From UHGV virus genome UHGV-1682877: a stretch of DNA of 64,000 nucleotides. One strand, written 5' to 3'. Position 1 is the stretch's first letter. Each line of letters begins with the position of its first letter. This document shows positions 9,905 through 10,200 of this stretch, piece after piece. A program made the position numbers and the translations under genes. The notes below the pieces were generated by a model. That model saw only the letters and a list, made by a program, of their open reading frames with translations, was not told the origin of the DNA and made no database searches. This DNA comes from a virus.

Positions 9905-10200
9905 ATGGATAATATTATTGAACGAAAAGTTAAAATATTTTGTTGGCATTTTATTATTGATAAAAAAATGGCTATTTCTTGTTTAGAAGATTTTTGAATA
10001 ATATTAATGATATTTCTTTTTATATTTTTACAAGCACTCATAATGATGTTATTCATTTTAAAATTAATGAAAAAGAATATGTTCTTTTAATGGGAGATTA
10101 TTTGGTTTATGATTCTTATTATGAGAATTTTGCTATATTTCATAAACTTCCAAAATATATTCGTAAAATACAACAAATTGAAAATTTAAAAAATAAATGA
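9905..10200 (+). pseudogene. frameshifted paralog of 9444-9902 (split at a T5 run near 9991-9995)
   Basis: N-terminal 30 aa (KVKIFCWHF) in one frame and remainder (LNNINDISFYIF) in next frame both align to upstream paralog. Confidence 0.5.

Follow-up and report, generated by a model that had tools for sequence, protein, structure and literature searches.

A gene that changes reading frame partway along may be a pseudogene, a sequencing error or a switch that depends on slippage, and the first-pass annotation left all three options standing for positions 9905-10200 of the window, the whole stretch of 64,000 nucleotides analysed here. The coding sequence in question, here termed gene B, opens at ATG 9905, 2 nt past the stop codon of the preceding gene A, and runs for 30 codons (MDNIIERKVKIFCWHFIIDKKMAISCLEDF) to a TGA. 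Comparison with related phages favoured the pseudogene, left sequencing error possible but less likely, and spoke strongly against the switch. The locus probably carries a real, recent and strain-specific T6 to T5 deletion, which leaves a dispensable accessory gene with a null or hypomorphic allele.

The break in gene B and its tandem partner

The codons at the junction are GAT (9989-9991), TTT (9992-9994) and TGA (9995-9997), and the direct reading of the sequence bears out that the break lies in a run of exactly five T residues and that the remainder continues in an adjacent frame. This is the -1 frame, which is open from 9979 (9979 - 9905 = 74, frame +2, that is, -1) and is read past the break as ...F L N N I N D I S F Y I F...; the shift that restores the gene is therefore one in which a base is re-read, not skipped. 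As had been proposed, a single added T rejoins the open reading frame, giving a 98-aa protein (MDNII...LEDFLNNINDIS...NLKNK), and the junction peptide of the restored or trans-frame product reads ...LEDFLNNINDISFYIF... (...EDF-LNN...). When compared with gene A by BLASTP, the repaired protein gave one alignment of 84 residues that spans the break, at 44% identity (E 1e-20), which upholds the earlier description of the two genes as tandem paralogs.

Gene B aligns only to the N-terminal ~88 residues of gene A, whose C-terminal domain of ~60 residues has no counterpart in gene B. In the AF2 model of gene A, residues 1-80 form one compact domain (pLDDT 81-91), and residue 30, the equivalent of the gene B break, falls within the helix formed by residues 19-33. 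As the break would thus interrupt a helix of that domain, the separate 30-aa and 68-aa fragments of gene B are predicted to be unlikely to fold. The features of the locus are collected in Table 1.

Table 1. Features of the gene A/gene B locus, in window coordinates
Feature	Position	Strand	Basis
Promoter-like TTGAAT-17-TATAAT, 5' of gene A	9385-9413 (feature 9385..9443)	+	10/12 consensus match
35-nt leader/RBS motif (...AAGAAAGGAATAAAA), 5' of gene A	9408-9442	+	Motif scan
Gene A, 152 aa, intact, two-domain; N-terminal domain paralogous to gene B	9444..9902	+	BLASTP, AF2 model
Gene B 5' segment, 30 codons, premature TGA 9995-9997	9905..9997	+	Sequence, ORF list
T5 run, the lesion; T6 in 7/7 other B-carrying contigs read	9991..9995	+	Alignment
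Gene B 3' segment, -1 frame, 68 codons, (L)NNINDISFY...IENLKNK; TTG 9994-9996 overlaps the premature TGA as TTGA, end at TGA 10198-10200	9994..10200	+	68-aa gene in ENA annotation
Promoter-like TTGAAA-17-TGnTATAAT, for next gene (10243-10551)	10178-10206 (feature 10178..10242)	+	Consensus match
35-nt leader copy for next gene (10243-10551)	10201-10235	+	Motif scan

Promoters and leaders were called from consensus matches only, so that their function is inferred. The 35-nt leader (TATAATATATWT..AAARTTAAGAAAGGAATAAAA), which combines a -10 box with a strong SD-like RBS, occurs in three copies, the two in Table 1 and a third at 27947-27981, with 0 expected by chance. No strong promoter match was found for gene B itself, the best candidate agreeing with the consensus at 10/12 positions and having AATAAT as a poor -10 hexamer. 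The element upstream of gene A is the probable start of an A-B transcription unit, judging from its sequence, and the two genes are probably co-transcribed. The -35 hexamer of the element serving the next gene sits within the last codons of gene B. Several Logan contigs (L006-L009) end just upstream of the 10201 leader copy, at ...AAATAAATG.

Searches of Pfam and PHROG returned no family for either gene or for the neighbouring genes (8092-9396 and 10243-10551). Relatives of gene A numbered 21 among 5.8 billion proteins, all within the same phage group, and a joint A+B profile recovered only five representatives (at 50% identity) among 1.84 billion proteins, all of them members of the A/B family. 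At the nucleotide level, megablast and blastn of positions 9300-10600 against cultured and deposited phages gave only 47-nt AT-rich chance matches to Lak phages. The search of IMG/VR with repaired gene B yielded no confirmed locus, and that with gene A yielded one, L001. Gene B has no known relatives beyond this phage group.

The window was 100% identical over all 20,200 bases compared to the 67.7-kb scaffold ZEEV15-1_SAMEA3664525_METAG-scaffold_130 (ENA ERZ28663491) and, as implied by the coordinates, is the reverse complement of its positions 1-64000. The phage stock presumed by the first-pass annotation accordingly gives way to a human-gut metagenome scaffold. The window has a GC content of 30%, carries 17 tRNA genes and encodes gyrase A and B, DnaB helicase and RecJ, and the related contigs are 133-140 kb in length. 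The nearest phages in culture have Bacillota hosts, and their RecJ proteins are no more than 37% identical in amino-acid sequence to that of the window. The host genome of gene B is that of an uncultured human-gut phage of ~135-140 kb and 30% GC.

Two further loci in the window were observed. The gene for a radical-SAM enzyme at 18794-20053 overlaps another at 20046-20795, the product of which matches Pfam PF27846 (tSAM_targ_Cxxx_rpt), and the two may constitute a phage-borne peptide-modification pair. Within the tRNA array, an ORF for a GIY-YIG homing endonuclease (12359-13006) lies on a segment of ~880 bp (~12132-13008) that is found in L002, L010 and L013 and is missing from L001, L005, L015, L016 and L011, a present/absent mobile endonuclease.

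Gene B in related phages

Fifteen related loci were compared at the DNA level, aligned from the 3' end of gene A to the next gene. Gene B was read in seven contigs other than the window (L002 and L010-L015), representing six distinct alleles, and in every one of them the run is T6 and the frame is open over 90-98 aa, the junction reading GAT/AAT TTT TTR AAY. Among the loci read at the DNA level, only the window and the scaffold from which it derives had T5. L015 has the intact allele most similar at the junction, its sequence (GATTTTTTGAAT) being exactly that of the window plus one T. L015 and L002 share 94-99% nucleotide identity with the window in the gene B region, both with T6 and an open frame, and apart from the missing T only five substitutions, with no second lesion, separate the window's gene B from that of L015. 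L011 and L012 are more distant: the 4.4 kb around the gene are only 85-86% identical to those of the window, and the non-synonymous divergence in gene B is ~30%.

At the protein level, repaired gene B matched two 90%-identity clusters, and ~20 distinct full-length 98-aa variants were found on >50 contigs, one variant being present on 21 of them; all read ...LE(D/N)FLNN... at the break site. The 68-aa fragment was found on two to three contigs and the 30-aa fragment on one; three contigs in all bear the broken allele, which has entries from ENA as well as from Logan (a contig of 68.8 kb). The two-frame arrangement is not a chance pattern, since many other assemblies contain intact orthologues that share 92-95% identity with the repaired product. 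Because T6 is shared by every other B-carrying contig read, seven in number and including the diverged L011 and L012, T5 is a derived one-base deletion from an ancestral T6, and the few substitutions and the lack of a second lesion relative to L015 indicate that it arose recently. As would be expected of a nascent pseudogene, intact orthologues are found in close relatives, and L011 and L012 place the intact state as ancestral.

The gene A sequences of the window and L002 are the same at every nucleotide, and the adjacent gene B sequences differ at nine sites plus the indel, a contrast that suggests a recombination mosaic between strains.

Gene B looks normally functional, given dN/dS values of 0.08-0.5 among its closer alleles and a frame kept open over 90-98 codons of very AT-rich DNA across deep divergence. 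Against L011 and L012 the dN/dS is near 1, which indicates a fast-evolving gene; we suspect that extreme AT bias lowers the dS estimate in these two comparisons.

The A/B module can nevertheless be dispensed with, since gene B is cleanly absent (a difference of ~270 bp) from L001, L005 and L016 and gene A is doubly frameshifted in L001. The three loci retain, from the 3' end of gene B, the TTGAAA-17-TGnTATAAT element together with the 35-nt leader of the next gene. In L001 (an IMG/VR UViG of 137.7 kb), gene A (5978-6434) carries two 1-nt homopolymer deletions, T5 to T4 at window position 9472 and A4 to A3 at window position 9538, and gene A fragments matching these lesions (P0018 and P0019) are recorded in JGI, Logan and ENA contigs. 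When the indels between the window and eight relatives were listed over 5-12 kb, the only uncompensated frame-breaking coding indels were three, namely the T5 of gene B and the two in L001 gene A, all within A/B. The other coding indels were multiples of three or compensated pairs, and all other homopolymer length differences lay in intergenic DNA. This clustering fits relaxed selection on the module, a further property expected of a locus harbouring a nascent pseudogene, and not scattered sequencing error. With 219 A/T runs of at least 6 nt, the window offers a large target for replication slippage, so that one such lesion is unremarkable.

Alternative readings of the junction

The main rival to a true mutation, although an unlikely one, is that the phage truly carries T6 and an intact gene, T5 being either a consensus error or the minority-function allele of a T5/T6 sample mixture that happened to be assembled. 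Homopolymers are the classic sites of indel errors, all relatives carry T6, and the T5 copies in the databases may share the window's own sample, the window being the ENA scaffold itself. Against this, T5 has been recorded from two collections, and in the regions compared with the eight relatives the window has no further uncompensated coding frameshift, so that the assembly is not prone to indels in general. Furthermore, the name of the scaffold points to the re-assembly of a sample from a 2015 human-gut cohort, the data for which are presumably short-read, and short-read errors at runs of 5-6 nt are rare. The change is more probably a true mutation.

It is quite improbable, although a shade less so than the readings that follow, that T5 is a selected hypomorph (a 'savior indel') or the phase-off state of an A/B module switchable by its homopolymers. 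Such an allele would provide a trickle of wild-type protein through a -1 P-site slip at U_UUU_UGA, in a module that has repeatedly gained homopolymer frameshifts across lineages, and would, if real, represent a modest case of compensatory frameshifting occurring naturally in phages.

A phase-variable contingency locus, in which the T tract acts as a hypermutable on/off switch of an accessory gene, is slightly less credible. Three independent homopolymer frameshifts have arisen in A/B across lineages, and a fourth case may exist. The 77-aa gene B variant P0028 has Met22 as its exact start, directly after the A7 run at 9962-9968, and may represent a second independent homopolymer frameshift allele of gene B; it is found on two ENA contigs of up to 43.8 kb. 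However, the tracts are short (4-7 nt), the T run showed no recurrent variation in length, being T6 in all other genomes read, and the two gene A lesions combined with loss of gene B in L001 resemble irreversible decay rather than switching.

Programmed or selected recoding, whether by -1 frameshifting at the junction or by polymerase slippage, would make the locus a switch yielding 30-aa and 98-aa products, and there is very little to commend it. The mRNA junction U_UUU_UGA does fit Z_ZZN, the minimal motif for -1 P-site re-pairing, the A site being occupied by a stop codon (a 'shifty stop'; PMC5009743), and for that reason forms no X_XXY_YYZ heptamer; the slipped product would have exactly the wild-type sequence; and unprogrammed suppression of 1-bp deletions reaches ~1% in aggregate in E. 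coli (PMC10861913). The slippage-dependent switch raised by the first-pass annotation founders on the remaining evidence: the two-frame arrangement was seen in none of the seven other B-carrying contigs, all of them T6, with ~20 intact variants on >50 contigs; the fold of the 106 nt downstream (-13.2 kcal/mol; z -0.42 versus shuffles) offers no stimulatory structure; inspection by eye for an upstream SD-like signal found only AGAAGA (9985-9990), which poorly matches the AAGAAAGGA leader usual in this phage; and the 30-aa zero-frame product would stop inside the helix of a single domain. Transcriptional slippage fares no better, as appreciable RNA-polymerase slippage in bacteria typically involves A/T homopolymers of 7-9 nt or more and the run here is well below such lengths. 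Published slippage examples are A6-A8 and longer (PMC5009743).

It is equally hard to credit that gene B has been split into separate halves that reassemble or act apart, the 68-aa part being produced by termination-reinitiation at TTGA, where the TTG does overlap the stop and gene callers did place the 68-aa ORF, because that TTG is a weak start, the sole purine-rich stretch upstream is the poorly matching AGAAGA 3 nt away, the break lies within one compact domain and the arrangement is found in one lineage only.

Two other means by which the stop might be bypassed were considered and rejected. Reassignment of TGA is at odds with the 9 of 46 large ORFs that end in this codon, as does gene B itself; the window yielded no tRNA bearing a UCA anticodon, and the alignments demand a change of frame, not read-through. 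No suppressor tRNA was detected in the window. The 46 large ORFs on the + strand end with TAA in 37 cases, with TGA in 9 and with TAG in none, a distribution that probably reflects AT bias. The tRNA-like gene at 13040-13112 has an 8-nt anticodon loop (CUUGAAAA), for which ARAGORN reports the 4-base anticodon UGAA, and its rescue of gene B was rejected on the grounds that quadruplet decoding gives a +1 shift and the deletion needs -1. The 8-nt-loop tRNA occurs in three strains (the window, L001 at 8399-8474 and L016 at 4975-5047), the anticodon stem of the L016 copy differing by two compensatory changes (TTACC/GGTAA to TCACT/AGTGA), and the corresponding tRNA of L005 (4928-4999) is without the extra G and is a normal tRNA-Leu(UAA). 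The gene may encode a +1 frameshift-suppressor-like tRNA or, alternatively, represent a third Leu(UAA) copy in decay.

Origin and meaning of the T5 allele

Under the favoured reading, a real one-base deletion, gene B is in its normal state an intact 98-aa accessory gene, a C-terminally truncated tandem paralog of gene A. A replication slip in one strain would then have dropped one T from T6, converting GAT TTT TTG to GAT TTT TGA, and translation would now end after 30 codons, within the first helix of the compact domain. Gene B function would thereby be lost. The T5 allele would be a null or strong hypomorph of recent date and a nascent pseudogene, and the dispensability of the A/B module would explain why it is tolerated. 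No recoding device would have evolved. At most, trace amounts of wild-type-sequence protein might arise from an unprogrammed -1 P-site slip of tRNA-Phe on U_UUU with the slow UGA in the A site, which the ~1% suppression of deletions in E. coli makes mechanistically plausible; by this analogy the leak would be of the order of ~1% or less, and nothing suggests that it is under selection. Reinitiation of the 68-aa part at the TTGA overlap is conceivable.

The closest parallel is provided by strain-specific slippage pseudogenes, with which gene B shares a 1-base deletion in a mononucleotide run, orthologues that are intact both near and far, the absence of a compensating signal and a location in a dispensable, present/absent module. 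It differs from them in having only one lesion and no further decay, so that the loss may be only recent or partial. At the herpesvirus thymidine kinase G-run, 'corrective/compensatory' low-level frameshifting occurs at an indel allele (Atkins et al. 2016, PMC5009743). As in that case and in E. coli suppression (PMC10861913), a -1 slip on the gene B run would recreate the wild-type protein, and gene B resembles compensatory-frameshift cases in its 1-nt homopolymer deletion, minimal Z_ZZN and A-site stop; unlike the 7 G of thymidine kinase, however, its run is only 5 nt, and there is no sign of a selective benefit of the indel. The overlap of ORFs in the 0 and -1 frames at a U-rich junction recalls the lambda G/GT tail chaperone and dnaX, but those sites are conserved, usually of the X_XXY_YYZ type and often accompanied by stimulators, with both products functional, none of which holds at gene B.

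The T5 event is an ordinary phenomenon, and the lesion is of little importance beyond annotation. The appropriate annotation for positions 9905-10200 is a single frameshifted gene, a disrupted member of the 98-aa family, and neither two small ORFs nor a recoding site. The A/B pair itself is best regarded as a lineage-restricted, fast-evolving and dispensable accessory module of a group of ~135-140 kb human-gut phages, and its loss by deletion or by homopolymer frameshift in different strains is typical of non-essential phage accessory genes.
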